DNA of 64,000 nt from an uncultured delta proteobacterium (lineage in GTDB: Bacteria > Desulfobacterota > Binatia > UBA9968). Within the stretch, counting starts at the first letter, position 1; each line of letters begins with the position of its first letter. Below are positions 2,929 to 31,749 of this stretch, one piece after another. The position numbers and the translations under genes were made by a program. Under the pieces are notes generated by a model. The model did not search any database. It was not told where the DNA came from and saw nothing but the letters and a program-made list of their open reading frames with translations. The stretch covers positions 2,723,512 to 2,787,511 of the forward strand of contig CAWDMI010000002.1 of assembly GCA_963803415.1 (NCBI GenBank). The letters are read 5' to 3'.

Positions 2929-5373
2929 CTAACCCTCTCCCTGAGAGCGAGGGAAAGGGTGAGGTTCTACCGGTAATGTGAAGAAGAATCGGCTTCCCTT
3001 GCCGAGTTCGCTTTCAACCCAAATCTTACCGCCATGCATCTCGACAAATTTTCTCGCTAGAGCAAGTCCCAGCCCGGTGCCTTCAGGGTTTCCAGATCCG
3101 CTACTGGCCTGCTGGAATTCGAGGAATATTCGCTCATGGTCTTCTGCGGCGATACCTGGGCCGGTATCGCCTACCTCGACGCAGACAAACACGTCATCGC
3201 GGAATGTTCTTAGCCAGATTTGTCCCTCCCGTGAGGTGAATTTCACCGCGTTGCCCATCAGGTTGAGAAGCACTTGTTTCACACGCGCGGTATCTAGGCG
3301 GAGTGCAATGTTGCTGCTGTCTTCCACGTCAAGGGCAATACCCTTCGCCGCCGCGAGAGGCCGGATTGTAGCACAAGCTGCATCGAGAATGCCTTGCAGG
3401 GATGTCAGTTCTGTTTGCAGTTCCATCCTGCCGGCTTCGATTTTGGATAAGTCGAGGGCCTCGTTGATGAGGTTGAGCAGATGTTTCCCCTGTTAAAGAT
3501 GTCCGTAAGGAATTGCACCTGTTCATCGTCACTGACCTGCATTGCGGGGTCGAGCAGGACCTGCGAAAAGCCGATGATTGCGTTGAGCGGCGTGCGAAGC
3601 TCGTGGGACATGTTGGCGAGAAACGCGGACTTATGACGGTTGGCAGTCTCAAGCTGTTGGCTTTTGGCCTCAATCTCACGGAAGAGCCTTGCGTTCTGCA
3701 TCGCCAAGACAGACTGTGTCGCGAAGGTCTGGAGCAAATTCACGACTTCGGTGGGAAAGCCGCCCAGTTCCCGCCGCCAAACGACCAAACCTCCTACAAT
3801 CTGGTCTTCGAACAGGGGGGAGCGCTAGGACAGATCTATAGCCAGAGCGGGCCAGGATGGGACGCACTCGAGCAAGGACGACTGCCTGCTCATTTAGAAT
3901 ATCGGGCACTTGTACCGGCACGCGCGCGAGCGCGGCTTGCCCCAAAGCTCCCTCACCCAGATGAATCGGCACTCCCTGAAGCGCGTCACTCAACTCAACT
4001 TCCATTCCATGCGTGGCCCTGAGATGAAACTCCTCGGCTAGGTTGTCGTATTCATAGACCACTCCGCCGCTAGTTCGAGAAAGCTGAACCGCTCGCGTTA
4101 CAATGGTTGTGAGCACTGTCTCCAGATCGAGCGTGGAGCTTACCGCTTGTCCTATTTCACCCAGTGCCGTCAGTTGCTCCACGGAGCGCGACAGTTCTTG
4201 GGTGCGGGCCTGCAGCTCTTGGAAGAGACGAACATTCTCAATCGCGATCACCGCTTGATCGGCGAATGTGGTCACAAGCTCGATCTGTTTATTGGAGAAC
4301 GGCCTGGCTTCTTCAGTTCTGCGAATCAGGATGACTCCCACGAGGGCACCCTCCCTGAGCATGGGGACTCCCAGGGTCGTGCGGCCCCTCCCCATGCTCA
4401 CCGCCTCAGGAAATTCGTATTCCGGGTCAGCCATGATGTCCGGGATGTGAACCACCTGGCGCTCAACGGCCACTCGTCCTACCGTGGTCCCTCGCCCCGG
4501 CCGAATTGGGTTTCGCTCAAGAAAATCCCTGAATTTCTGTGGCACATTGTAGGCGACCGCCGGCCGCAGCAGCTCGCCGTCTGTCCTGAAGATAAATCCC
4601 GAATTCGCGCCGCACAGTCTCGTCGCGTTTTCAATCAGTGTTTCCAAAACCGGCTGGAGATCGAACGTCGAGCGGCTGATGACTTTCAATACCTCGCTGG
4701 TTGCAGTTTGCTGCTCCAAGGCTTCAGTGAGGTCCTGATTTCTGGCTTGCAGTTCCCGAAACAGGCGCACGTTCTCGATGGCGATGACGGCCTGATCGGC
4801 GAAAGTCTTAAGAAGCACGATCTGTTTTTCCGAGAATGGACGAACCTCTGTGCGGCGGATCAAAATGGCTCCGACGGGGACACCCTCGCGCAGCAATGGG
4901 GTAGCAAGGGTGGTCCGATCGCCCATTTGCCTGTGATAGGCCTTGCTCAGCGGGAACTCCTCTTCCGACTCGACAGCCAGGTCAGGAATGTGAATCGTCC
5001 GCCGCTCAATTACGGCCCGGCCGCTTGTAGAGCCACGAGTGATAGGATTCGGTACTGCCGGGACAGGCCCATATATCGCCACTGGCTGAAGAATGTCACC
5101 ATCAATACGAAAAACTACCGCGTCGCGTGCATCGCATAGGCGTGCGGCATTCTCGGCAACCACGTCAAGAACGGGCTGAATGTTTGTCGGAAAACTGGCA
5201 ATCGCCCGCAGAATCTCGCTGGTCGCCGTCTGCTGTTCCAGGACTTGAGCGAGCTCCCGCTCAGTGGATTTGAGCTGCTCGGAGACGCGTTTAAGGTCTT
5301 TCTTAAGTTGACGCAGCTCGGTAAGGCCGGGAGTGTTCGTCTTCGGGTCTTTTTTTATTCTAGGCCTCCCCAT
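2929..5373 (-). pseudogene. Cytoplasmic multi-GAF sensor histidine kinase (coiled-coil, at least 3 GAF domains, HisKA, HATPase_c). It is split into three ORFs by two 1-bp frameshifts in G/C homopolymers, near 3487-3490 and 3820-3825.
   Basis: The ORFs 3676..5373, 3405..3788 and 2929..3426 join into one kinase once the frame is corrected. Repeated GAF linkers ([10 protein letters not shown]) are present, the H-box is SHELRTPLN, and N/G boxes occur in the C-terminal ORF. Corrected reads are [22 protein letters not shown] and [27 protein letters not shown]. Confidence 0.6.
2933..2964. repeat. Palindromic dispersed repeat, copy D (ccctctccc-tgagagc-gagggaaa-gggtgagg)
   Basis: Read directly. It overlaps the 3' end of the histidine-kinase gene. 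Confidence 0.6.
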
Positions 5374-5602
5374 CTGAGATCCTCTACGTTTTTGTTAGAG
5401 AAACGTTTAGTCCGCTTAGCTACACTAAAAAGCCGGCGTCACGATAGGGAGCAGATTGCTCTGGGTCGAAAGCCTACTTGATCGTGAACTTCGGTGTCAA
5501 CATGGGCTTGGCTCGAACAGACTCTTAAAAAATCTCCGTTCCTTAAGCCACTCTCTGTCCTGCCAGCATCGCCGGCCGGGCAGGGAGGGTTTTCATGGTC
5601 TC

Positions 5603-17572: not shown

Positions 17573-18421
17573 CTACTTAACCGCGCCCATGGTAAAGCCG
17601 GCGATAAAGCGATCGACAAAAAAATTATAAAGAATTGCAACCGGAACGCTGGCAATAAAGCAACCAGCCATCAGCGAGCCCCAGAAATAGACGTCCCCAT
17701 GGACCAAAAAGGTGGGAACGCCCACGCTGACCGTAAGATTTTTTACCGACGAGATGAAAGTCACGGCGTAGACGAATTCTTGAACTACGAGGGTAAAGCT
17801 GAAAATGGCGACGGTAAGAACTCCCGCCAGCGAGATCGGCACAACGACCCGAATAAATGCGCCAAGACGGCTGCAGCCGTCGATCATGGCGGCCTCTTCC
17901 ACGTCTTTTGGAATCGCCTTGAAGAAACCCATCATCAGCCAAGTGGAAAATGGCACCGTGAAAGAAGGATAAACCAACACCAGCGACCATAACGAATCGT
18001 CCAGATGGAGGCTCACCACGACGCGCGAAAGCGGTATGAACAAGAGCGTCGGCGGAACCAGATAAGTGAGAAAGATCCCGATGCCCAGTCGCTCGCCCCA
18101 AGCACTGGTCATCCGCGCCAAAGCGTACCCCGCTGGGACCGCCAACACCAGCGTGATGATCACGACCAGCACGCCGACAAACGCGGTATTGAGCAACCAT
18201 TGACTATATTCGGTTTCGGTAAACAAACGGTGGATATGCTCCAGCGTCGGCGCTTCGTAAAAAAGAAACGGATTGTGATTAAGATTGTAAAGATCGCTCT
18301 GGCGTTTGAACGCGGTGATGAGCATCCAGAAAAAAGGAAAGGCGAGAAAAAAGGTAATTGAGCAGAGAATGCTCCACTGCGTCGCCCAAGCCCCCCAACG
18401 TTTGACTCGCTCGACATTCAC
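17573..18421 (-). CDS. Sugar ABC transporter permease (MalG/UgpE-like)
   Basis: Six transmembrane segments and an EAA-loop region. Confidence 0.8.
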   Translation of the reverse strand: MNVERVKRWGAWATQWSILCSITFFLAFPFFWMLITAFKRQSDLYNLNHNPFLFYEAPTLEHIHRLFTETEYSQWLLNTAFVGVLVVIITLVLAVPAGYALARMTSAWGERLGIGIFLTYLVPPTLLFIPLSRVVVSLHLDDSLWSLVLVYPSFTVPFSTWLMMGFFKAIPKDVEEAAMIDGCSRLGAFIRVVVPISLAGVLTVAIFSFTLVVQEFVYAVTFISSVKNLTVSVGVPTFLVHGDVYFWGSLMAGCFIASVPVAILYNFFVDRFIAGFTMGAVK

Positions 18422-18422
18422 G

Positions 18423-19367
18423 TCACGCCACCTCGGTGCGCCGGGCTATGCGCAGGAATCCGAGAGCCACGGTCAGAAGCAAAGGAAATAGGAATAGCGA
18501 AATCGCCGCGCCTTCGGCGAGATCACCCCCGGCGATGCCCGTATAGAATGCCAGGCTCGCCAGCACCTGCGTGCTATCAAATGGTCCGCCGCGCGTCAGG
18601 TTATAAATGATGATCATGTCGGTGAAGGTAAAGATCAAACCGAAAAGCAGGGCCACCAAGCTGATCGGCAGGATCAGCGGCACGGTTACTTGGAAAAAAT
18701 GGCGCCAAAAGCTTGCGCCATCCACTGCCGCTGCATCGTGAATATCTTTTGAGATTGAGCTGTGGCCGGCGAGCAGAATGACGGTTGCCAACGGCAGCTG
18801 GCGCCAGACATTCACCGCTATGATCGAACCCATCGCCAAATTCGGTACGCCAAGCCACATGAAACCCTGGCCGTGGACCAGACCGAGTAGGCGCAGTGTC
18901 CAGTTCAGAACACTATAGGTGGAATCAAAGATCCACAGCCAGCCAATCGTGCCGATTGAAATCGGCGCCACCCAAGGCAGCAGGATGAGAAAGCGAATCA
19001 ATTTTTTGGCGCGAAATTCCTTTTGCAACACGAGCGCCAACGCGTGGCTGAGAAGCAAAATCACAAGCTGCGAGAGCAGCGCAAAAATCAGGGTATTTTT
19101 CAGTGCGGTTTGAAACTTTGGCGTGCCAATGATGTTGGTGAAATTGCGTAAACCGACAAAGGTCATGCTCTGGCCGCCGATGGTAGTGTTGCTGACGCTA
19201 TAATAAAGGGACATGAAGAAAGGGACTCCGACCAGCAGCATAATGTAAAGCACTGCCGGGCCGATCAACAACGACCCAAGCCAGTGTTCGTTATCAAATA
19301 TCGCTTGATAACCTCGCTGCTTTTTCGCGGGTCGCGGCATTTGTGTGAATTGCGCGGATGCATTCAT
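18423..19367 (-). CDS. Sugar ABC transporter permease (MalF/UgpA-like)
   Basis: Transmembrane profile and EAA motif (HDAAAVDGAS). Confidence 0.8.
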   Translation of the reverse strand: MNASAQFTQMPRPAKKQRGYQAIFDNEHWLGSLLIGPAVLYIMLLVGVPFFMSLYYSVSNTTIGGQSMTFVGLRNFTNIIGTPKFQTALKNTLIFALLSQLVILLLSHALALVLQKEFRAKKLIRFLILLPWVAPISIGTIGWLWIFDSTYSVLNWTLRLLGLVHGQGFMWLGVPNLAMGSIIAVNVWRQLPLATVILLAGHSSISKDIHDAAAVDGASFWRHFFQVTVPLILPISLVALLFGLIFTFTDMIIIYNLTRGGPFDSTQVLASLAFYTGIAGGDLAEGAAISLFLFPLLLTVALGFLRIARRTEVA

Positions 19368-19380
19368 GGATCAGATGATT

Positions 19381-20412
19381 CTAGAGCGAGCGCGCGGCAA
19401 TACGAAGCTCCGTCGAAGGATCGAAAAAGCGCAGCACGTTGGCATCCACGGCGAAGTCATGGGTCATGTTGGGTTCGATTCTTGCGGTGACGGTCGACGG
19501 TAATCGGCCGATCACTTTTTGATCCGCATCGGGATGGGCGAGCGTCCCATACAGGAGGCGGTCGGCGCCCAGGTATTCCACTCGGGTCACACGAAAAGAA
19601 AATGTGACCGTCTTTGACGTGCCGTCTTGAGTTCCTTTAGGTAGAAAGTGCTCCGGTCGAAAACCCAAGAAATAATTATCGCGCCGCACCAAATTCATGG
19701 GTGGCGAGCCGACGAAGCGGGCGACAAAGGTATCCGCCGGTTCGTCGTAAATCTCTTGAGGCGTGCCCACCTGTCGCACCAGGCCGCCGCTCATGACGGC
19801 AATGCGGTCGCCCAAACCCATTGCTTCAACTTGGTCATGAGTGACGTAGATGGTCGTCGTGCCGATGCGCCGCTGAAACTGCTGTAGTTCTTCGCGGGCC
19901 GACGCGCGCAGCTGGGCATCGAGGTTGGAAAGCGGCTCATCAAGTAGGAATACCGCCGGCTCGCGCACAAGCGCGCGCGCCAAAGCAACGCGCTGGCGTT
20001 CGCCGCCGGATAGCTCGCGCGGTTTGCGCTGCAGCAGATGGCCGATGCCAAAAAGAGTCGCGGCCCATTCAACCTTTTTCGGGATTTCCGTTTTGTCTAT
20101 TCCCTGCGCTTTCAATGGGAAGGCGATGTTCTTGAAAACGGTCATGTGCGGATAAAGCGCGTAGCTTTGAAAGACCATTGCAACCTGGCGCGCGCGCGGC
20201 GGCAAATCGTTGACCACCTTGTCGGCGATCAAGAGTTCTCCCTCGCTCGGCGTTTCCAGGCCCGCGATCATGCGCAAAAGCGTGCTTTTACCGCAGCCAG
20301 AGGGCCCGAGCAGCACGAGAAACTCACCGTCTCCAGTGCGCAAATTGATGCCTTTTACAGCCGGGACTTCGCCGTAATATTTCTTGATCCCGCGTATTTC
20401 AACGGTGGCCAT
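19381..20412 (-). CDS. ABC transporter ATP-binding protein (MalK/UgpC-like)
   Basis: Walker A GPSGCGKST, signature LSGGERQR, Walker B, and a C-terminal TOBE domain. Confidence 0.9.
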   Translation of the reverse strand: MATVEIRGIKKYYGEVPAVKGINLRTGDGEFLVLLGPSGCGKSTLLRMIAGLETPSEGELLIADKVVNDLPPRARQVAMVFQSYALYPHMTVFKNIAFPLKAQGIDKTEIPKKVEWAATLFGIGHLLQRKPRELSGGERQRVALARALVREPAVFLLDEPLSNLDAQLRASAREELQQFQRRIGTTTIYVTHDQVEAMGLGDRIAVMSGGLVRQVGTPQEIYDEPADTFVARFVGSPPMNLVRRDNYFLGFRPEHFLPKGTQDGTSKTVTFSFRVTRVEYLGADRLLYGTLAHPDADQKVIGRLPSTVTARIEPNMTHDFAVDANVLRFFDPSTELRIAARSL

Positions 20413-20562
20413 CGAGGGGTGACTATGCAGATGCTGGATTCAGGTATCGATCGGCAGCGAGATGAATCGGCAAGTGAGAGTCGAAGATCGGACTCTGCCT
20501 TCATCCGATTAGGCGCGGCGGGCCTTTTTATGACTAAATCTGCCGCTGGCGTCGCGACTGTC

Positions 20563-21906
20563 CTACATCAGTTTGCGCTCCCGCCACTTCTCCCAGACGC
20601 GCTTGCATTCCGCTTCGGCTTCTTTGACGGCGTCCTCGGGGCTCAGCACGCCTTGAGCGGCCTTGGCGAACATGACGTTGATGATCCACTTCTGGTAGAT
20701 CTCATCGATGGCCGCGTTCGCGTAACCCGGGTAGCCGATGTTGGTGGCCCAACTCAGCACGTCTTCCAGCACCATATACTTGTCAGACGGTTTAGCTTTG
20801 GCGTCCTTGCTAAGCAGCTGCTTCAAATCTGGGACGGTGCGTTGGAAGCAGGGGAAGTCGTAGAATTCACCGTTCACGAATGCCTGACGGAAGTTGCCGA
20901 CATAGTCGACTAGAAACTTCGTGGCGCCGTCGATGTTCTCGGCGAACTTCCAGATTACGTAAACCGCCATCACATGCTCCACGCCGATCCGCCGAACGGG
21001 CCCAGCCGCGGCCTTTGCCAGGTGAATCTTTTCCGTAAATGCCGGATTGTCTTTCTCCCCGGTTCGCGTGATAGAAATCGCATTGAGCGCCAGTGAGATT
21101 GTCCCTGCCAGCATCGCTCGATTGTTAGAAGAAGCGTCCCAAGTAAACACTTCTGGGGTCATGGTTTCTTGAAACAGAGCCTTGGCAAATTTCACGGCCT
21201 CGACCGTGTTCTTGGAATTTAACGTCAAATTACCATTGGCATCCTGCTCACCGGCGCCGAAGGAGTACATGATAGTACGCATGGCCATTGCTGTGTCGAG
21301 TTCCTGCGCTAAACCAAGGCCCACCGGGATGTTGTGCTTCTGCTTGATCTTGCGGCCGCCGTCGAGGATCTTGTCCCAACTGTCCGGCGCAACTCCGACG
21401 TCGTCCCATAGATCTTTCCGCCAGTTGATCGGGTCGGGTGTGAACGATGGAGAAAAGCCAAAATATTTTTTCGTCTTGGGGTTGTAAGTGCTTTTGATGG
21501 CAAGGTCGATGGGCTTGCCGTACTTCTTTTCACACTCGGCATAAACGTCCTTCATGTCCATCACCTGATCTTCGTAGAAAGGCGGCGGCCATAAGAAGAG
21601 GAAAAGGTCGTGACCTCTCTGGGCGGAGACTTCGGCCGCGGCGCGGGCGCTAAGGCCGGCAAGGCCGATATTGTCGACGGTCACTTCGATGCTATTTTTT
21701 TCGCCCCACTCTTTGACGTATTTCTCGTTGAACCATTTGTCGAAAGCGGGGACGAAATGAACCCATTGAAGAATTTTAAGAGTCTTCCTAGCGCTAGCGG
21801 CGTGGGACCGCGATGGAACTAGGATACTCGTGCTGAGCCCGGCTCCGAGCGCTCCCGCCGCCGTGGTTTTGATGAAATCGCGTCGAGAAAGTCGTTTCTG
21901 TGACAT
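20563..21906 (-). CDS. Extracellular solute-binding protein (family 1, sugar-type) with Tat signal
   Basis: RRDFIKTTAAGALGAG twin-arginine signal; length and composition fit a sugar-type SBP. Confidence 0.75.
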   Translation of the reverse strand: MSQKRLSRRDFIKTTAAGALGAGLSTSILVPSRSHAASARKTLKILQWVHFVPAFDKWFNEKYVKEWGEKNSIEVTVDNIGLAGLSARAAAEVSAQRGHDLFLFLWPPPFYEDQVMDMKDVYAECEKKYGKPIDLAIKSTYNPKTKKYFGFSPSFTPDPINWRKDLWDDVGVAPDSWDKILDGGRKIKQKHNIPVGLGLAQELDTAMAMRTIMYSFGAGEQDANGNLTLNSKNTVEAVKFAKALFQETMTPEVFTWDASSNNRAMLAGTISLALNAISITRTGEKDNPAFTEKIHLAKAAAGPVRRIGVEHVMAVYVIWKFAENIDGATKFLVDYVGNFRQAFVNGEFYDFPCFQRTVPDLKQLLSKDAKAKPSDKYMVLEDVLSWATNIGYPGYANAAIDEIYQKWIINVMFAKAAQGVLSPEDAVKEAEAECKRVWEKWRERKLM

Positions 21907-22305
21907 GGGTAGCTCCTTTTTAGTCCCGCCATCTCAACGAAGAAACTGTGGGATATATAGCCGACAATTCAGCCCGATGTCAATTTATTGCTGGCGCTGC
22001 CGCATCGGGTCGTCCGGCCCGCAAGGGACGGTGGTCTGGCGATCAATTTTGCCAGGTTAGCGGGCGGATGGGTATCGCGGAGCCGGCCCTGAGCGCGGTC
22101 GAAGGGCCTCAACCCATCCTACAACAACTACCTCCGTAAACAGGGCAAGGCGGTCGGTGGCCGTGATCCTCGAGGCCATGCCATATCTCACAGGTGTACA
22201 AGCGCGTTGGCCATCGTGGTGGTTCGAGCCGGTGGAGGCCCTTGAAAGTTGCGAGAGGGGGAACTGTGTGTTAGGACCGAGATTCGACGGGCAACCGGTA
22301 AGACA

Positions 22306-23670
22306 ATGGATCTCGCAAATCTCCACTTGCTCTCCGCTTGCGAAGCCGCGCGCTTGATCCGTGAGGGAGTCATTAGTTCGGAGCAATTGGTCGAGGCCTG
22401 TCTCGCGCGCATTCGCGCGGTCGATGAGCAAGTCCAAGCGTGGGCGTTTCTTGATCCCGACTACGCGCTGGGGCAAGCGCGCGCCGCAGACTGGCGGCGC
22501 AGCGAGGGGCAGCCGGCCGGCCCGCTGCATGGCGTGCCCGTGGGTGTGAAAGACATCTTCGACACTGCCGACATGCCGACTGAGAATGGTTCCGTCCTCC
22601 ACGCGGGGCGTGCGCCTGCGCGCGACGCGACTGTGGTGGCGAGGCTGCGCGCCGCGGGCGCAGTGATCATGGGAAAGACCGTGACCACTGAGTTCGCGTT
22701 TCTCACGCCTGGAAAAACGCGCAATCCGCATAATCCTGAGCATACACCCGGTGGTTCCTCCAGCGGTTCGGCCGCGGCGGTTGCTGCCGAAATGGTGCCG
22801 CTCGCGCTCGGCAGCCAGACTAACGGCTCAACGATCCGGCCCGCGGCATTTTGCGGTGTGGTCGGCTTCAAGCCGACGCATGGCTTGATCTCGCGCCACG
22901 GCATCCTCGCGCTCTCGCGCACGCTCGACCACGTCGGTTTATTCGCGCGTACTATCGGCGATGTCGCGCTGCTTGCCGAGCAACTAGTCGGCTATGACGA
23001 GCGCGATCCCGATACAAGGCCGCGCGCGCTCGTTCCGTTCGTCGATGCGGCAGCCGGGGAACCACCGCTGCCGCCGGTGTTCGCGTTCGTGAAAACCCCT
23101 TACTGGGAGCGCGCGGATATGGAAACGAAAGAGGGGTTCGCGGAGCTTATCGAGCGCCTGGGCGACCGTGTCGAGGAGGTTGAGCTCTTCCCGTCGGCAA
23201 CCCTTCGACCTGGCTCAGGGCAGGCCGACGCGTGGCAGTGGCAGCGCACGATCATGGCAGCCGAGATGGCGACAAACCTGGAACGGGAATGGGACGAAGG
23301 CCGCGATCGCTTGTCAGAAACGTTGCGCGCACAGCTTGAACGGGGACGGGAGGTGCGCGCGCTTGACTACCAGCGCGCGGTCAGCCGGATTCAGCCAATC
23401 TATGAAAACTTTGTTGAGCTGTTCAAGCAGCACTATGACGCGATCCTGACGCCGTCCGCTCCGGGGACCGCGCCGAAGGGACTTACCTCGACCGGAGATC
23501 CAGTGTTCTGCGCGCTGTGGACGTTGTGCGGCATGCCCGCGATTAGCCTGCCGCTTCTGCAGAGCAGGAACGGTCTACCGCTTGGAGTTCAACTCGTCGG
23601 CCCGCGCAATGACGATGCGCGCCTGCTGCGCACGGCGCGTTGGCTGGCGGCCAAAGTCGCAGCCGGCTAG
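22306..23670 (+). CDS. Amidase signature family enzyme
   Basis: GGSSSGSAAAVAA amidase signature; Ser-cisSer-Lys region. Confidence 0.8.
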   Translation: MDLANLHLLSACEAARLIREGVISSEQLVEACLARIRAVDEQVQAWAFLDPDYALGQARAADWRRSEGQPAGPLHGVPVGVKDIFDTADMPTENGSVLHAGRAPARDATVVARLRAAGAVIMGKTVTTEFAFLTPGKTRNPHNPEHTPGGSSSGSAAAVAAEMVPLALGSQTNGSTIRPAAFCGVVGFKPTHGLISRHGILALSRTLDHVGLFARTIGDVALLAEQLVGYDERDPDTRPRALVPFVDAAAGEPPLPPVFAFVKTPYWERADMETKEGFAELIERLGDRVEEVELFPSATLRPGSGQADAWQWQRTIMAAEMATNLEREWDEGRDRLSETLRAQLERGREVRALDYQRAVSRIQPIYENFVELFKQHYDAILTPSAPGTAPKGLTSTGDPVFCALWTLCGMPAISLPLLQSRNGLPLGVQLVGPRNDDARLLRTARWLAAKVAAG

Positions 23671-25271: not shown

Positions 25272-25586
25272 ATGAAAGAGCTGGAAGTCACGCTCGAGCG
25301 TTTGGAATCGGCAGTCGTTCTCCATGTTGAGGGACCCGTAGATAGCGATACGGCTGCCTTTCTACAGGAGCCGCTCCTGCATGCCGCTGAGAGTCCAAGC
25401 GGCGCAGTGCAGATCGACTTGGCCCGAGTATCGTATATGAGCAGCGCCGGCTTGCGTGTCCTGCTACTCGCGGCCAAGGCGCTGCAAAAACGGGCCGAGC
25501 GGCTGCGACTGCTCAATGTCCCGCCGCAGATCTATAATGTCTTGAACCTAGCGGGCTTTACATCGTTCATTGACGTCAACTTGTGA
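25272..25586 (+). CDS. STAS-domain anti-sigma-factor antagonist (SpoIIAA/RsbV-like)
   Basis: 104 aa, with the conserved phosphorylatable SSAGLRVLL motif. Confidence 0.75.
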   Translation: MKELEVTLERLESAVVLHVEGPVDSDTAAFLQEPLLHAAESPSGAVQIDLARVSYMSSAGLRVLLLAAKALQKRAERLRLLNVPPQIYNVLNLAGFTSFIDVNL

Positions 25587-26009
25587 TCCCGATGCCTCGT
25601 GGGGGGAGGCCCGGCGCTGTGCGCGAGGGTAGCAAAAAGATCGAAGCAAACGTTTGGCAACAAGTACCCGGCACCACGTCCGTCGAAATCTTCCCGATTA
25701 TCACCAAGCCGACGCAAACGTAGGGGCGGAACGGCTTGACGATATTTTGACCACTCTCAAGCCGCGACCCGATCACTCCAGTTGCTTTAGGGAAGCGCCG
25801 CCTTGACCTTTATAACCGGACGCTTGGCTGGCTCGGCGGTAGTCTCGAATGCAGCCAACATAACGGCAGCGCTGAATTCGTCATCAGACTGCCGGCGCTC
25901 CAGCCAGTGTGAAGTGGCGCGCGCAGGAGTGATAGTGCCTGTTTTGGCAGGTGGGAGAGTTCGAAGCGTTCCGGCCTGACCGGCGCGTCATCATCCGCGG
26001 CGGGACTTA

Positions 26010-27242
26010 ATGAAACTCTTGCACCGACTCCTGCTCTTTTGCGGTCTGCTCGTTTTTCTTCCCGGGGGAGTCCTTGCCGAGGACATAGTCATCGGCATGT
26101 CCGCTGCATTTACCGGACCATCGAGGGGTCTCGGTATCGAGCTCTATCGGGGTTCCATGGCGTATATCGAGCACATCAATCAAAGCGGCGGTGTCTCCGG
26201 CAGAAAGATAGTCATTAAAGCCTATGATGACGCTTATAACCCCATATCCGCCATACAGAATACCATTAGATTTATGGAACAGGACAAAGTGTTTCTCTTG
26301 TTTGATTATGTAGGAACGCCCACAGTGACCAGGGTCCTGCCGCTGCTCAAAAGCTACCGCGTTAGGCCCATGTTCTTATTCTTTCCCTTTACCGGGGCTC
26401 AACCCCAACGACAGCCGCCTTATAACGCCTATGTATTCAATCTGAGAGCGTCGTACCAGGAGGAGGCAGAAGGATTGGTGGATAACTTTGTACTCGTCGG
26501 CAGAAGAAGGATTGGTGTTTTCTATCAATCTGATGCCTATGGCAGGAGCGGCTGGGACGGCATAAGAAGAGCGTTAGCGAAAAATGGGGGCCTTAAAATT
26601 GCCCAGGAGGCGACTTATCGCAGGGGGACAGCCTATTCCCAGACGCTCAAGGATCAGGTTGAAATTCTTAGAAGCGCGGCGCCGGATGCGATTATTTCTG
26701 TGGGGGCTTATGAGGCTTGCGCAGGTTTTATTAGAGATGCGCGGAACGCCGGCTGGCGAATTCCCATTGCAAATGTCTCTTTCGTAGGTAGCGAGAGTTT
26801 AGCGGCCCTACTGCTGGAGAGCGGCCGGGCTGCGAAAAAAGACTACACGCAGGATCTCATCAATTCACAGGTGGTGCCGAGTTATGAGGATACCTCATTG
26901 TCTTCGGTTAGAGAATATCGGGAATTGATAGACAAATATAACCCCCTGCCCCCGCACAATCTTATCGACCAAAACTATAAACCACTCCAATACAGCTTTG
27001 TCAGCCTGGAGGGCTTTCTGAATGCCAAGCTGCTCGTTGGCATCCTCAAAAGAATGGGGGAGAACGTCACAAGTAGCCGTATCAAAGAAGTCACAGAGCG
27101 GATCAAGAATCTGGATCTCGGAATGGGTACGCCGATTTCGTTCGGTCCCGATAAACACCAGGGGTCGGAGAAAATTTATTATACGACCCTTAGCGATGGC
27201 AGGTTTGTTCCGATCACGAATTGGGGGAGATGGAGGCAATGA
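26010..27242 (+). CDS. Periplasmic binding protein, type 1 (LivJ/ANF-receptor-like) with signal peptide
   Basis: Signal peptide and the VIGMSAAFTGP...GRKIVIKAYDDAYNP PBP1 pattern. It overlaps the next gene by 22 bp. Confidence 0.75.
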   Translation: MKLLHRLLLFCGLLVFLPGGVLAEDIVIGMSAAFTGPSRGLGIELYRGSMAYIEHINQSGGVSGRKIVIKAYDDAYNPISAIQNTIRFMEQDKVFLLFDYVGTPTVTRVLPLLKSYRVRPMFLFFPFTGAQPQRQPPYNAYVFNLRASYQEEAEGLVDNFVLVGRRRIGVFYQSDAYGRSGWDGIRRALAKNGGLKIAQEATYRRGTAYSQTLKDQVEILRSAAPDAIISVGAYEACAGFIRDARNAGWRIPIANVSFVGSESLAALLLESGRAAKKDYTQDLINSQVVPSYEDTSLSSVREYRELIDKYNPLPPHNLIDQNYKPLQYSFVSLEGFLNAKLLVGILKRMGENVTSSRIKEVTERIKNLDLGMGTPISFGPDKHQGSEKIYYTTLSDGRFVPITNWGRWRQ

Positions 27243-29173
27243 GGCTGTTTAAGAAGACCCTCATCCTCATGGTCATTTTGTTTGGTGTGATTGCCACCAC
27301 GACTTCTATCGTTTCGGGTTGGAACCTGTACAGGCAACTTACCAAAGAATATCAAAGCAAAGGGACAGCAATCGCAAAGAGTATTGCGGATTCTAGCGTA
27401 GAGTTGTTGCTGAACAGGGACGCTTCGACGGTTCAGGCTGTAGTTGATCAGTTTACCGAGATTGAAGGGGTGGCTTACGCTTTTGTTGCCGATCGGCATG
27501 GAGAGATCCTTTCCCATACCTTTGTTCCCAGAATACCCATGGCAGTCTTGCAAATTCAGAGCGAGATCCAGAAACGAGGCGCCAGAGAAGAACTAATCAC
27601 CACCAACCTCTATATTGACGGTATCGGAGAGGTCATTGACATCGCCGCGCCGATACTGGCCGGTGTGGCCGGATATGCGCATGTGGGCATGGACCGAAGC
27701 ATTATTCGGGCGCAGATTTGGTCTGCCGTCATGGCGCAACAAAGACTCATGTTGATCATTTTCTTGTTCAGCGTTCTCCTCGCCTATATCCTCGTGAACC
27801 GGATTTCTCGCCCTCTAAACCTACTGGCCGAACATGCTCACACACTCGCCTCTAGTGACTTTGCGGCTTCAGCGAGTGCGGTGACGGAGATTGAATCCCT
27901 TGCTACGAAATCGAGCGATGAAATAGCGGAACTCGCGGAGTCTTTTGTCTACATGGAGCAGACCTTGCGACGATATCTAAAAGACTTGGCGGAGACCACA
28001 GCGGCGAAGGAACGCATCGAAAGTGAATTGAAAATCGCCCATGATATCCAGATGAACATGGTGCCCCAAATTTTTCCGCCATTTCCCGAACGGCACGAGT
28101 TCGACATCTTTGCTACGCTAGTTCCGGCAAAGGAAGTCGGAGGAGATTTCTACGACTTTTTCTTCCTCGATGACGACCGGCTATGTTTTGCCGTCGGCGA
28201 TGTTTCCGGGAAAGGGGTGCCAGCGGCCCTTTTTATGGCCCTGACCAAAACCTTGCTCAAGGCAACTGCAAGCGGGTTGGCCAGCCCCGCGGAAATTCTC
28301 ACCCGGTTGAACGAGGAAATCTGCCGGGACAACGACGCCTGTATGTTCGTCACCTTATTTTGCGGCATCTTGAATATTCGCACCGGCCAGTTTGATTACA
28401 GCAATGGCGGACACAACCTTCCGTTTTACCTCTCCCGCGACGGCGTGAAGCCGTTGGAAAACACGGGAGGAATGGCGCTGGGTGTGGTGGAGAAACTTGT
28501 GTATGCGTCTAAGCGCATCGTTCTTGATTCCGGGGAAAAGCTTTTTCTCTACACCGATGGGGTGACCGAGGCGATGGATGGCGAGGAGAATCTTTTTTCA
28601 GAACAGCGGTTGGAGCAGTTCCTATCGAAAGCTCGTGGAGGCACCCTTCGGCAGATCGTTGGTGACATTGTCAACGAAATCAGGAACTTTTCCGCGGGAG
28701 CCCCGCAGTCGGACGATATAACGGCTCTAGCATTGGAATATGTGCGGCCGGGGGAAACGAGATTGACCATCGAGATCAAGAATCAACTCTCCGAGCTGGA
28801 AAGGTTGAATCAAATCGTCACCGAATTCGGCGCGCTTCACCGTCTGGGCCCCAAGGTTTCACATGATCTCCATCTCGCTTTGGAAGAGATCCTCACCAAT
28901 GTTATTTCCTACGCCTACTGCGACGACCGCGAACATGATATTCGGGTCCGTCTCAGCTTTAAGCCGGGAAAAGTGACGGCCGAGGTGGAGGATGATGGGC
29001 GACCTTTCAGTCCGCTGGAGGCGTCAATACCCGACGTGAGTCGACCCCTGGAGGAAAGAACCGTGGGAGGACTGGGTATCCATCTCGCGCGCAACTTGAT
29101 GGACGCGCTGGAGTATCGGCGGGAAAAAGGGCGAAACATCCTACGCATGAAAAAGGGCACGGAAGAAGCTTAG
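27221..29173 (+). CDS. Membrane sensor with HAMP, PP2C-type phosphatase (SpoIIE/RsbU-like) and a C-terminal RsbW-like GHKL kinase/anti-sigma domain
   Basis: Two transmembrane segments flank a periplasmic domain of about 150 aa. A HAMP region follows. The PP2C motifs are GGDFYDFF and DVSGKGVPAALFMA...YTDGVTEA. The C-terminal HATPase reads HLALEEILTNVISYAY...EDDGRPF...GGLGIHLARNL. Confidence 0.8.
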   Translation: MGEMEAMRLFKKTLILMVILFGVIATTTSIVSGWNLYRQLTKEYQSKGTAIAKSIADSSVELLLNRDASTVQAVVDQFTEIEGVAYAFVADRHGEILSHTFVPRIPMAVLQIQSEIQKRGAREELITTNLYIDGIGEVIDIAAPILAGVAGYAHVGMDRSIIRAQIWSAVMAQQRLMLIIFLFSVLLAYILVNRISRPLNLLAEHAHTLASSDFAASASAVTEIESLATKSSDEIAELAESFVYMEQTLRRYLKDLAETTAAKERIESELKIAHDIQMNMVPQIFPPFPERHEFDIFATLVPAKEVGGDFYDFFFLDDDRLCFAVGDVSGKGVPAALFMALTKTLLKATASGLASPAEILTRLNEEICRDNDACMFVTLFCGILNIRTGQFDYSNGGHNLPFYLSRDGVKPLENTGGMALGVVEKLVYASKRIVLDSGEKLFLYTDGVTEAMDGEENLFSEQRLEQFLSKARGGTLRQIVGDIVNEIRNFSAGAPQSDDITALALEYVRPGETRLTIEIKNQLSELERLNQIVTEFGALHRLGPKVSHDLHLALEEILTNVISYAYCDDREHDIRVRLSFKPGKVTAEVEDDGRPFSPLEASIPDVSRPLEERTVGGLGIHLARNLMDALEYRREKGRNILRMKKGTEEA

Positions 29174-29801
29174 AGCATGAAAATTAGTGATGGTAAGACA
29201 AATCCTGGCTCTCCAAGAATAGAAAAGTCCGATCGGTCAGTTTAGACTATCGGGAAAGCCGGACGTCACGACGTTGAAAACATTTGAGGGAAAATTCTAG
29301 GTGAAATCGATTTTTGGGCTTCGTCAATTCGTGTTCGACCTGGCGCAGCCTGAATACTTCACCAGTTCGAGCGCGCAACTGTTTCTCTTTGCGGCAAAGC
29401 GTCCCAGCAGCGCAAAGCGTAAAAGTGTTTTGTGCTCGCTGAAAGGTCATGTCCGATTCGACCTCTCGGGTTTTTAGCCTATCCTATCGATCCACGGATC
29501 CCGCGAAGAAGCCAACCTGCGTCTTTAAACCTTCGGCAGGTCGATCACGGTTCGTTGCTTGGACCGGCGCGTGTTTCGATAGCGCCCCACTTCCGCGTCG
29601 GAGACGTCTGGAATAAGCCTCCTCGTCAGATTTCCTCATAAGACCAAAGATAATCTGCAAAATGCAGGTGCCACGTTGCTGATTGTTGCTGCTCAAGATT
29701 TGTGCAAGTCGGTTACAAGTTAAGCAGACCAGGTGGTGCACTGCAGACGCCCCAAAGTAAAAATTTAATGAATTTGTGCCTTTATGTGTCGGTCTTCCTG
29801 A

Positions 29802-29943: not shown

Positions 29944-31749
29944 TTGGAGGGCAAGATGGGTAAGAAAAGAAAATTCAGTGCGCTGTTGAGTTTTGTCATG
30001 ATCACAGGGCTGGTTCTGTCTATGGGCCTTTCCCATGCTGAGGAAGCTCCCGTGCCGGCTCCGGCTGCAGGCACGGAGGCTAAACCGTCCGAGGCAGCAG
30101 CGCCTGCGCCTGAGGCGCCTCAAGCTGCGGCGGCACAAGCTCCGGCGCCGAAGCTGCCACCATATTTCACATCCACCAGCCCGGACCCACAGAAACCAAT
30201 GTGGCCGGATCAGGGCGGAGGTAACAGTGGCGCCTGGGCGACGCCTGCCGGCGATGGTAAGGGCGACATTCCCGATCAGCTAAAAGTCGGGGATCTATAC
30301 GACCGCATCGCCCATAATCTTTACTCCATCAACTTTGTATGGACGTTGGTCACCGGCTTCTTGGTAATGTTTATGCAAGCCGGTTTCATGTTTGTCGAGA
30401 CGGGGCTCTGTCGGGCGAAGAATGCCTCCCACACCTCGGCCATGAATTTTATGATTTATCCTCTCGGCTGTCTTGCCTTCTGGGCTTACGGGTTTGCGTT
30501 CGGCTGGGGGAACTGGTGGAACGGACCGGTGCCGCCGGGCTGGTATGCGTCGCTCGGTCCCGGCCTATCGGTGTTAAGCGAGGGTTGGGGGCTTGGGGCT
30601 GCTGTAGATGCTGCGGGGAAAGCCACTGGAGCATTCACCTATGGCATCATCGGTACGAAGGGGTTCTTCCTGAGCAGCGCTGTCGGAGACACGGGGGTGC
30701 TGGCGATCTTTTTCTTTATGATGGTTTTTATGGACACCACGGCGACGATCCCGACCGGCGCGATGGCTGAGCGCTGGGCGTGGAAGAACTTCTGTCTTTA
30801 TGGTGTGTGGGTCGCTCTGCCCTACTGTATCTATGCGAACTGGGTCTGGGGTGGAGGCTGGTTGGCGCAGGGCGGGATTAATTGGGGGCTTGGGCATGGG
30901 GCAGTCGATTTTGCGGGCTCGGGTGTCGTCCACGCGATGGGCGGCATTATCGGTCTTGCGGGAGCTATGGTTATAGGGTCGCGTATCGGCAAGTACGACT
31001 CACAGGGCCGGCCCAAAGCGCTGCCGGGTCACAATGTCCCGATGGTTGTCTGCGGCACTTTCATTCTTGCCTTTGGATGGTTCGGATTTAACCCCGGGTC
31101 GACCCTTTCCGGCACGGATCTCCGTATCAGCTACGTCGTCGTGAACACGCTGCTCGCCAGCGCCACGGGAGCCGTCGGCGCGCACTTGATGCTCTCTATG
31201 AAGGGCCTCAAGCCGGACCCGACGATGATGTGCAATGGTATGCTTGCGGGCCTCGTGGCGATCACTGCGCCGTGCGCCTTCGTCGATCCTTGGGGGGCAG
31301 CGGTCATCGGTCTGGTTGCAGGTTTCTTAGTTGTCATTAGTGTCTTCTTTTGGGAAAACTGCGGCATCGATGATCCGGTCGGCGCCATTTCGGTCCACGG
31401 TGTAAACGGTCTCTGGGGCGTGCTATCGGTGGGTATCTTTGCCACTGGGCAGTACGGCGCAGGTTGGGGGGGTGTGGTCCGTGACGAGTTCGTCAAGGCG
31501 TATGGTTCAGACGGCGTGCGCGGGCTCCTCTACGGCGACTTCTCGCAGTTCATCATGCAGGTCATCGACTGCGCGGTCGTGGCGGTATTCGGCTTCGTTA
31601 TGGCCTATGTATGGTTTAAGATCAGCGATGTCATTACGCCCATCCGTGTGAGCGCTGAGACCGAAATTGAGGGTCTTGACGGACCTGAGATGGGTACCCT
31701 CGGCTACCCGGACTTCCAGCTCCACTCAGGACAGCGGCTGGTAGAATAG
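29944..31749 (+). CDS. amt: Ammonium transporter (Amt family) with a signal peptide and a Pro/Ala-rich N-terminal extension
   Basis: Eleven transmembrane segments with the Amt signature regions (DFAGSGVVH, GFNPGS). The start may be at the downstream MGKK. Confidence 0.9.
   Translation: MEGKMGKKRKFSALLSFVMITGLVLSMGLSHAEEAPVPAPAAGTEAKPSEAAAPAPEAPQAAAAQAPAPKLPPYFTSTSPDPQKPMWPDQGGGNSGAWATPAGDGKGDIPDQLKVGDLYDRIAHNLYSINFVWTLVTGFLVMFMQAGFMFVETGLCRAKNASHTSAMNFMIYPLGCLAFWAYGFAFGWGNWWNGPVPPGWYASLGPGLSVLSEGWGLGAAVDAAGKATGAFTYGIIGTKGFFLSSAVGDTGVLAIFFFMMVFMDTTATIPTGAMAERWAWKNFCLYGVWVALPYCIYANWVWGGGWLAQGGINWGLGHGAVDFAGSGVVHAMGGIIGLAGAMVIGSRIGKYDSQGRPKALPGHNVPMVVCGTFILAFGWFGFNPGSTLSGTDLRISYVVVNTLLASATGAVGAHLMLSMKGLKPDPTMMCNGMLAGLVAITAPCAFVDPWGAAVIGLVAGFLVVISVFFWENCGIDDPVGAISVHGVNGLWGVLSVGIFATGQYGAGWGGVVRDEFVKAYGSDGVRGLLYGDFSQFIMQVIDCAVVAVFGFVMAYVWFKISDVITPIRVSAETEIEGLDGPEMGTLGYPDFQLHSGQRLVE

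Follow-up and report, generated by a model that had tools for sequence, protein, structure and literature searches.

A predicted partner-switching sensor coupled to a periplasmic solute-binding protein in an uncultured Binatia bacterium

Stress responses, biofilm formation, and development are governed in bacteria by partner-switching systems, of which only a minority have a known input signal. A locus in the genome of an uncultured delta proteobacterium (Bacteria; Desulfobacterota; Binatia; UBA9968; assembly GCA_963803415.1, contig CAWDMI010000002.1, forward-strand positions 2,723,512 to 2,787,511) raises the question of whether a periplasmic solute-binding protein can serve as the input device of such a switch. 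The 64,000-nucleotide (nt) stretch that we analyzed is referred to below as the window, and its positions are counted from its first letter. Three genes of the + strand were found where a preliminary description of this DNA had placed them, with Pfam support for a STAS protein, a binding protein, and a multidomain protein in which a transmembrane sensor, a PP2C phosphatase, and an RsbW-like kinase are joined (the fusion). We consider it probable that the locus encodes a solute-binding-protein-coupled partner-switching sensor. The coupling of a binding protein to a partner switch would be what is new here, the fused phosphatase-kinase being already known. The features of the locus (lengths in amino acids, aa) are the following:

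25272..25586, + strand: STAS-A, an intact 104-aa protein of the anti-sigma-factor-antagonist type
25583..25909, + strand: remnant of an MBL-fold (Lactamase_B) gene, internally deleted; 581 aa in intact operons
26010..27242, + strand: orphan periplasmic solute-binding protein, 410 aa, Peripla_BP_6, with a signal peptide; proposed co-sensor
27239..29173, + strand: transmembrane sensor-phosphatase-kinase (the fusion), 644 aa, ATG start inside an ATGA overlap
27257-27319, + strand: TM1, hydrophobic segment, residues about 7-27 of the 644-aa protein (sequence reading)
27326..27730, + strand: sCache_3_2 periplasmic domain, residues about 30-164 (Pfam, 1.1e-15)
27743-27796, + strand: TM2, hydrophobic segment, residues about 169-186 (sequence reading)
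27791..27955, + strand: HAMP domain, residues about 185-239 (Pfam, 4.1e-07)
28169..28738, + strand: PP2C/SpoIIE-type phosphatase domain, residues about 311-500 (Pfam SpoIIE, 4.6e-51)
28781..29155, + strand: RsbW/SpoIIAB-like GHKL serine kinase (anti-sigma) domain, residues about 515-639 (HATPase_c_2, 1.6e-27)
29177..29477, + strand: STAS-B pseudogene, decayed counterpart of the STAS gene that lies directly 3' of the fusion in related operons

The binding-protein and fusion genes had been proposed to be translationally coupled, and this was supported: the ATGA junction between them is conserved in homologous loci, including those in which the sensor carries other output domains. The overlap, however, had been given as 22 bp, from a TTG start at 27221, and the protein as 650 aa long. 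The likely start is the ATG at 27239, which leaves a 4-bp ATGA overlap with the binding-protein stop codon and yields 644 aa, an exact match to protein record P0001. In L086, a metagenome contig with 98.5% DNA identity to the window and the same gene arrangement, a 9-nt tandem duplication directly after the fusion start codon (L086 2043-2060) adds Arg-Leu-Ser, and the ATGA overlap is retained.

The binding protein (26010-27242) matches Pfam Peripla_BP_6 (1.4e-41), and its N-terminal signal peptide, as read from the sequence, ends in ...GVLA/ED. Its best solved relative, 4kv7 (3.7e-47), is a structural-genomics 'probable LIV-binding protein'. The fold and the annotation of the nearest solved relatives as Leu/Ile/Val-binding proteins would fit an ordinary transport protein, serving a branched-chain amino-acid-type ATP-binding cassette (ABC) importer encoded elsewhere, its place beside the sensor being due only to coincidence or co-regulation. 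Binding proteins of transporters are borrowed by some chemoreceptors (PMC8050422), and the inspected DNA is 64 kb of a 3.57-Mb genome. However, the protein scored 37.8 bits against LivJ (NCBIfam PRK15404), for which the cut-off is 477 bits, and it was also far under the UrtA NCBIfam cut-off; with such a score, and outside a livHMGF operon, it does not belong to LivJ/LivK. No ordinary Liv ABC operon was found within the DNA examined, where the sole ABC system is of the SBP_bac_1/BPD_transp_1 type (17.5-21.9 kb, opposite strand). Moreover, a motif scan of 87 loci (649 kb) that carry the binding-protein family revealed no ABC ATPase-like ORF (open reading frame), while the unrelated ABC ATPase of the window's SBP_bac_1 system (19384-20439) was detected as a positive control. 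The 4-bp coupling to the sensor has persisted through about 60% sequence divergence and whatever the output type, and the genes of binding proteins by which sensor kinases are stimulated typically lie with signalling genes (PMC8050422). A transport role thus seems very unlikely.

Comparison with other loci lends strong support to a predicted input through the binding protein. A metagenome scan with the binding-protein alignment as the query gave 80 loci at 57-71% identity, and in 73 of them a sCache_3_2-HAMP gene directly follows the binding-protein gene. Five of the remaining seven have less than 200 nt past that gene; when only loci with at least 200 nt of downstream sequence were taken as informative, the pair was present in 70/72. 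The neighbourhood is therefore conserved, and together with the low LivJ score this adjacency upheld the earlier proposal that the binding protein is an input device rather than a part of Liv transport.

The output of the sensor varies while the pair stays constant. What follows the sCache_3_2-HAMP part is PP2C plus an RsbW-like kinase in 16 loci, a PAS-HisKA-HATPase_c histidine kinase, sometimes hybrid or with a stand-alone receiver gene next to it, in at least 19, and PP2C alone or PAS-PP2C in a few. Nine further loci (L137, L143, L145, L151-L153, L155, L159, and L165) encode sCache_3_2(-HAMP) membrane proteins of 240-250 aa with no output domain; they can be likened to an output-less Cache-HAMP receptor that, according to a recent preprint (10.64898/2026.05.25.727664), signals via another protein. 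In L159 a second sCache-HAMP-PP2C gene lies 2.7 kb downstream. Since the output changes around a constant pair, the binding protein and sCache_3_2-HAMP would appear to behave as a portable input cassette joined to several outputs. The output classes fall into several separate clades of a neighbour-joining tree of the binding proteins (a tree without bootstrap support). Distances between binding proteins correlate with those between Cache domains (r = 0.85), as shared ancestry alone would also make them do.

In the histidine-kinase loci (L087-L136), a conserved stand-alone receiver protein of 124-130 aa is encoded directly after the sensor, with no DNA-binding regulator, and therefore the output of these versions is probably not a classical transcription factor. 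The receiver gene is their only conserved neighbour, and their neighbourhoods gave no hint of the ligand, the flanks being housekeeping genes (PNPase, M16 peptidase, MutS, SAICAR synthetase).

How would the binding protein act on the switch? In the mechanism that we propose, it would capture a small periplasmic ligand and, with or without it, dock on the Cache domain of the sensor dimer. The HAMP domain would relay the change and shift the balance of kinase and phosphatase within the fusion, and this balance would set the phosphorylation state of Ser58 of the STAS protein. Unphosphorylated STAS would then bind the kinase domain or another target, and so free or engage an output encoded elsewhere. 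Candidates for this output are a sigma factor that the kinase domain sequesters, as in CrsR/HsbR, and an enzyme to which STAS binds. That the binding protein physically gates the sensor is the step that we infer.

The periplasmic domain of the fusion is itself a single Cache domain of the CitA/DcuS type, and the sCache_3_2 family was built on these two ligand-binding proteins (PMC4822843). The Cache domain could thus be the true ligand sensor and the binding protein a mere accessory, serving as an additional input, as a partner of the chaperone kind, or as an inhibitor. Chemoreceptors of the sCache_3_2 type have been reported for formate, and chlamydial RsbU senses metabolites directly by its periplasmic domain (PMC11619594). 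In an alignment of 12 homologues, the Cache domain contains strongly conserved blocks, including HTFVP and PILAGVAG.HVGMD, which could form a pocket. A search of the PDB with the periplasmic domain alone returned only spurious repeat-protein matches, which were discarded. Against sensing by the Cache domain with a dispensable binding protein stand the near-obligate pairing with the Cache-HAMP family whatever the output (70/72) and the missing transporter, both of which would then be hard to explain. We regard such an arrangement as unlikely, and it is not exclusive of input through the binding protein, as TorT/TorS-type systems use both proteins.

Dedicated binding proteins encoded beside a receptor, and not beside a transporter, are known from LuxP/LuxQ, TorT/TorS, BasB/BasT, and GlnH/GlnX/PknG, and the window pair resembles them. 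BasB is a Peripla_BP_6 protein, and the sensor domains of LuxQ and BasT are Cache-like (PMC8050422). The features of a binding-protein-dependent receptor are present in the window as well: the gene is linked to a receptor gene and not to ABC genes, the binding protein is predicted to be secreted, and the receptor has an extracytoplasmic domain between two helices. Docking of the binding protein on the receptor, which also characterizes such systems, is predicted here, where what is seen is the co-inheritance of the gene pair.

Is such coupling confined to this family? Of 20 ORFs from other phyla that we scanned, all of them adjoining or overlapping a HAMP-PP2C gene, 14 encode solute-binding proteins (NMT1 in 12 loci, ABC_sub_bind in one, and Peripla_BP_4 in one). 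The NMT1 loci include those of the cultured Rhodopseudomonas palustris JSC-3b and of Thiocapsa, Methylovulum, Bacteroidales, Negativicutes, and Thermodesulfovibrionales. The adjoining sensors consist of dCache_1 or dCache_2, HAMP, and SpoIIE, with a kinase domain (HATPase_c_2) in four, and such pairs span six or more phyla. In R. palustris JSC-3b (L080 4291-7975) and in loci within L009-L071, NMT1 or ABC_sub_bind genes overlap the dCache-HAMP-SpoIIE genes; these overlapping pairs, from cultured and uncultured Proteobacteria, Desulfobacterota, Negativicutes, and Bacteroidales, are tractable analogues.

A 2021 review of signalling mediated by binding proteins lists receptors of four families, which are chemoreceptors, sensor kinases, GGDEF/EAL proteins, and Ser/Thr kinases (PMC8050422); PP2C/SpoIIE phosphatases and partner switches are absent from them (PMC8050422). 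In open-access papers and preprints, we found no description of PP2C or partner-switch sensors coupled to binding proteins. It seems to us an evenly balanced matter whether the receptors that solute-binding proteins stimulate include a fifth, undescribed class, made up of the PP2C phosphatases and phosphatase-kinase fusions of partner switches, with the Peripla_BP_6 and sCache_3_2-HAMP pair as a self-contained portable cassette that was repeatedly joined to histidine kinases, PP2C, fusions, and output-less HAMP proteins. If so, signalling through binding proteins would extend from the four receptor classes to Ser/Thr phosphatase switches, and one extracellular ligand could feed two-component or partner-switching pathways, depending on the lineage. 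The swapping of outputs around a constant binding protein and Cache-HAMP pair would be a clean natural case of modular rewiring, which could guide the design of chimeric sensors. Moreover, a dedicated soluble and easily purified binding protein as the input would ease ligand discovery, e.g., by thermal-shift screening. The broad pattern of binding-protein-coupled PP2C switches and a portable cassette matters more than the window copy, which is a trimmed operon.

Are the parts of a partner switch complete in the window? Pfam searches found sCache_3_2, HAMP, SpoIIE, and HATPase_c_2 all in one ORF, and the two transmembrane helices proposed earlier correspond to two hydrophobic segments that flank the sCache_3_2 domain. 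The parts comprise a PP2C domain with metal-binding aspartates, a GHKL kinase with N-box and G-boxes, and a STAS protein with a phosphorylatable serine. In an alignment with 12 homologues (53-66% identity), the PP2C invariants are G301, G302, D303, D306, D321, D440, D492, and D493, within the motifs GGDFYD, GDVSGKG, TDG, and DDIT, and those of the GHKL domain are E550 and N554 (N-box), D585, D586, and G587, and G610, G611, and G613 (GGxG). All catalytic motifs of the fusion are thus intact. The PP2C domain matches RssB (3eq2) and Rv1364c (3ke6), and the GHKL domain matches RsbW (6m36) and again Rv1364c (3ke6); the latter domain scored under the RsbW and SpoIIAB equivalog cut-offs, and its membership is at the level of the domain family only.

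STAS-A (25272-25586) matches Pfam STAS (2e-17), and scored 66.9 bits against the NCBIfam anti-sigma factor antagonist model TIGR00377, above its cut-off of 53.45 bits. With the upstream STAS proteins of homologous operons it shares 71-84% identity. Its predicted phospho-acceptor is Ser58 in the motif YMSSAGL. In the STAS alignment S58 and G60 are invariant, Ser58 in both types of STAS, and Ser58 aligns with Ser58 of SpoIIAA. A motif identical to YMSSAGL was reported for chlamydial RsbV2 (PMC11619594).

The joining of a phosphatase and an antagonist kinase in one polypeptide had been considered an unusual wiring. It is not unusual: HsbR, CrsR, and Rv1364c have it, and a scan for relatives of the HAMP-PP2C(-kinase) core, with one genome per species, gave at least 593 matches with the HAMP-PP2C core; among the 80 that were kept, most have the kinase domain fused to it. 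These relatives come from Clostridia, Bacteroidales, Spirochaetes, Desulfobacterota, Proteobacteria, and other groups, and usually have a downstream-type STAS gene next to them. The full architecture of the window fusion is shared by more than 100 protein clusters at 54-66% identity, the nearest named homologues being those of Candidatus Binatia and Terriglobia metagenome-assembled genomes. The fusion point appears to be labile: two genuine split relatives (67-70% identity) consist of a 520-aa sCache-HAMP-PP2C protein and a separate kinase of 143-152 aa, with overlapping genes in one case and the kinase gene 2 kb downstream in the other. The 517-567-aa relatives from L004 and L005 were not used, since they seem to stem from assemblies with frameshifts (the L004 binding protein lies in three frames).

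Among experimentally studied systems, the receiver-PP2C-kinase proteins HsbR of Pseudomonas aeruginosa and CrsR of Shewanella oneidensis, which act on the STAS proteins HsbA and CrsA (PMC6482189), resemble the fusion in having PP2C followed by an RsbW-like domain and a STAS gene adjacent; in the window the downstream STAS gene is a pseudogene and the upstream one is intact. As here, their operon needs no sigma factor gene (PMC6482189). Their input, in contrast, is a cytoplasmic receiver domain fed by a phosphorelay, whereas the N-terminus of the window fusion has no Response_reg match and consists of TM-sCache_3_2-TM-HAMP, paired with a periplasmic binding protein. The sequence relation between them is at the domain level only.

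The contiguous PP2C and RsbW-like kinase of Rv1364c of Mycobacterium tuberculosis (3ke6) match residues 294-587 of the fusion (E 9.6e-16). Unlike the window fusion, Rv1364c is a cytoplasmic protein that receives its input through PAS and also contains a STAS domain, and it is not known to have a membrane sensor or binding protein.

In the chlamydial Rsb system, RsbU is a transmembrane protein with a periplasmic sensor domain, and RsbV1 and RsbV2 are served by one kinase and one phosphatase (PMC11619594); it differs in that the kinase (RsbW) and the phosphatase are separate, direct binding of the ligand by the periplasmic domain is assumed, and no binding-protein partner is known. In SiaA/SiaB/SiaC of P. 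aeruginosa (PMC7647112), a membrane-anchored HAMP-PP2C protein opposes a kinase on a small switch protein, as is predicted here. The SiaABC kinase, however, is a separate protein, and no binding-protein partner is known for SiaA. The fusion matched the SiaA NCBIfam model weakly (75.9 bits against a cut-off of 700, residues 158-499), and it is not a SiaA orthologue.

What, then, is the standing of the copy in the window? On long metagenome contigs the recurrent gene order is STAS (104 aa), MBL-fold protein (~580 aa), binding protein (410 aa), fusion (~650 aa), and STAS (111 aa). The window locus is best read as a reduced form of this five-gene operon, in which STAS-A, the binding protein, and the fusion are left, because tblastn found only the ends of the MBL gene and a broken STAS gene. 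STAS-A would accordingly be one of the two STAS genes of the ancestral operon. The preliminary description was right in placing a STAS gene upstream, but the spacing of about 400 bp, which it left empty, holds the MBL gene remnant in its 423 bp. With the L001 MBL protein as the query, residues 3-56 matched at 25625-25801, residues 482-503 at 25693-25758, and residues 530-581 at 25754-25909. The remnant in L086 (L086 1-707) is 393 bp longer and retains residues 3-74, 200-220, and 407-580; the deletion junction between the two lies at 25711-25716, with a 6-bp overlap. This difference suggests that the MBL gene is being lost stepwise in the lineage.

The same gene was trimmed elsewhere. L102, of an unrelated lineage, independently keeps just the last ~59 MBL codons (5308-5484), and another remnant lies in L004 (6151-6775). 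Expression signals of the binding-protein gene that lie in the 3' end of the MBL gene may be the reason why this end persists. The upstream STAS gene of intact operons is always paired with that of a 581-aa MBL protein (L001 4677-6761, L094 1229-3319, L116 1759-3840, and L121 1304-3385), in which Lactamase_B (glyoxalase-II-like) covers residues 34-259 and is followed by ~320 aa without a family match. This protein could be an enzymatic output of the switch. In L003 (600-10252), two complete modules lie in tandem, the first consisting of binding protein, fusion, and STAS, and the second of STAS, MBL, binding protein, fusion, and STAS.

The downstream-type STAS gene, which accompanies such fusions across phyla, is the pseudogene STAS-B in the window, a feature absent from the preliminary description. 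A tblastn search with the third STAS protein of L001 (STAS3, 44% identical to L001 STAS-B) matched at 29226-29513 (E 2.7e-12, 34.5% over 110 aa), passing through stop codons. The ATG lies 4 nt past the fusion stop codon, and is followed by a stop after 22 codons, a frame shift, and an in-frame TAG; the phospho-motif is also damaged (SSSAQL vs SSAGL). The decay is identical in L086. L102 shows the reciprocal state, having kept the downstream STAS gene and the MBL remnant but no upstream STAS gene, which suggests that the two STAS proteins may be redundant, one being enough. In Chlamydia and Synechocystis there are precedents for two antagonists served by one kinase-phosphatase pair (PMC11619594).

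With the MBL gene a remnant, 393 bp more of it deleted than in a 98.5%-identical strain, STAS-B a pseudogene, and no output gene seen nearby, the module in this genome could be a decaying relic without function, the frames of which simply have not been hit by mutation so far. Relative to L086, the binding-protein gene has 8 nonsynonymous and 7 synonymous changes (dN/dS 0.34), and the fusion gene 13 and 15, respectively (dN/dS 0.27); the 1935 nt of the latter are free of frameshifts. Strong purifying selection acts on the adjacent Amt gene (dN/dS 0.06), and the ratio of about 0.3 in the module is in line with decay. However, the 21 nonsynonymous and 22 synonymous changes in the two genes are set against ~77% of sites being nonsynonymous, and nonsynonymous changes are thus well under the neutral expectation. 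Moreover, the 3.2 kb of both genes contain no stop, frameshift, or other indel between the window and L086, while the neighbouring non-coding stretch of 782 nt gained 14 gap columns. The catalytic and phospho-acceptor residues are all intact, conservation within the cluster is highest for STAS-A (77-84% identity), and the reciprocal loss in L102 points to one STAS being enough and not to general decay. The binding protein and the fusion are intact and still constrained, and purifying selection on them persists; that the module is a relic is quite improbable.

Several points still weigh against a working sensor coupled to the binding protein. Two operon members are pseudogenes, and the difference between a dN/dS of about 0.3 and the 0.06 of Amt may mean that constraint is relaxed. 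Domains of the sCache_3_2 family can bind small ligands themselves, as in CitA, DcuS, and the reported formate chemoreceptors. That the kinase and phosphatase act on STAS-A specifically is a prediction. No output gene was seen near the locus; the earlier statement that no sigma factor is encoded nearby stands in part, as no sigma-70-family gene was seen among the matches listed for the ORFs scanned at 0.4-43 kb, which in part of this range are those of 25 of 45 families.

The binding-protein and fusion genes have a lower G+C content (0.51-0.53) than the window (0.555). Horizontal transfer was considered and set aside, several other checked loci sharing this offset; low G+C content appears to be a trait of the family. 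Between 24.4 and 30.4 kb, an Rfam scan found no RNA family, and scans for promoter and terminator consensus sequences found nothing beyond the expectation from shuffled sequences.

Of the other genes around the module, the upstream amidase and the downstream Amt gene are not conserved next to it in other loci. On the - strand, positions 435-1784 encode an NtrC-type sigma-54 activator with a receiver domain, and positions 17573-21906 a complete SBP_bac_1/BPD_transp_1/ABC_tran importer, the binding protein of which has a TAT signal; neither is linked to the module in other loci. The amidase gene (22249-23670, + strand) lies in a stretch of high G+C content (0.64). In the Amt ORF (29944-31749, + strand), the Amt domain is preceded by an N-terminal extension of unusual length (~130 aa), in which an Ala/Pro-rich stretch comes after a segment resembling a signal peptide.

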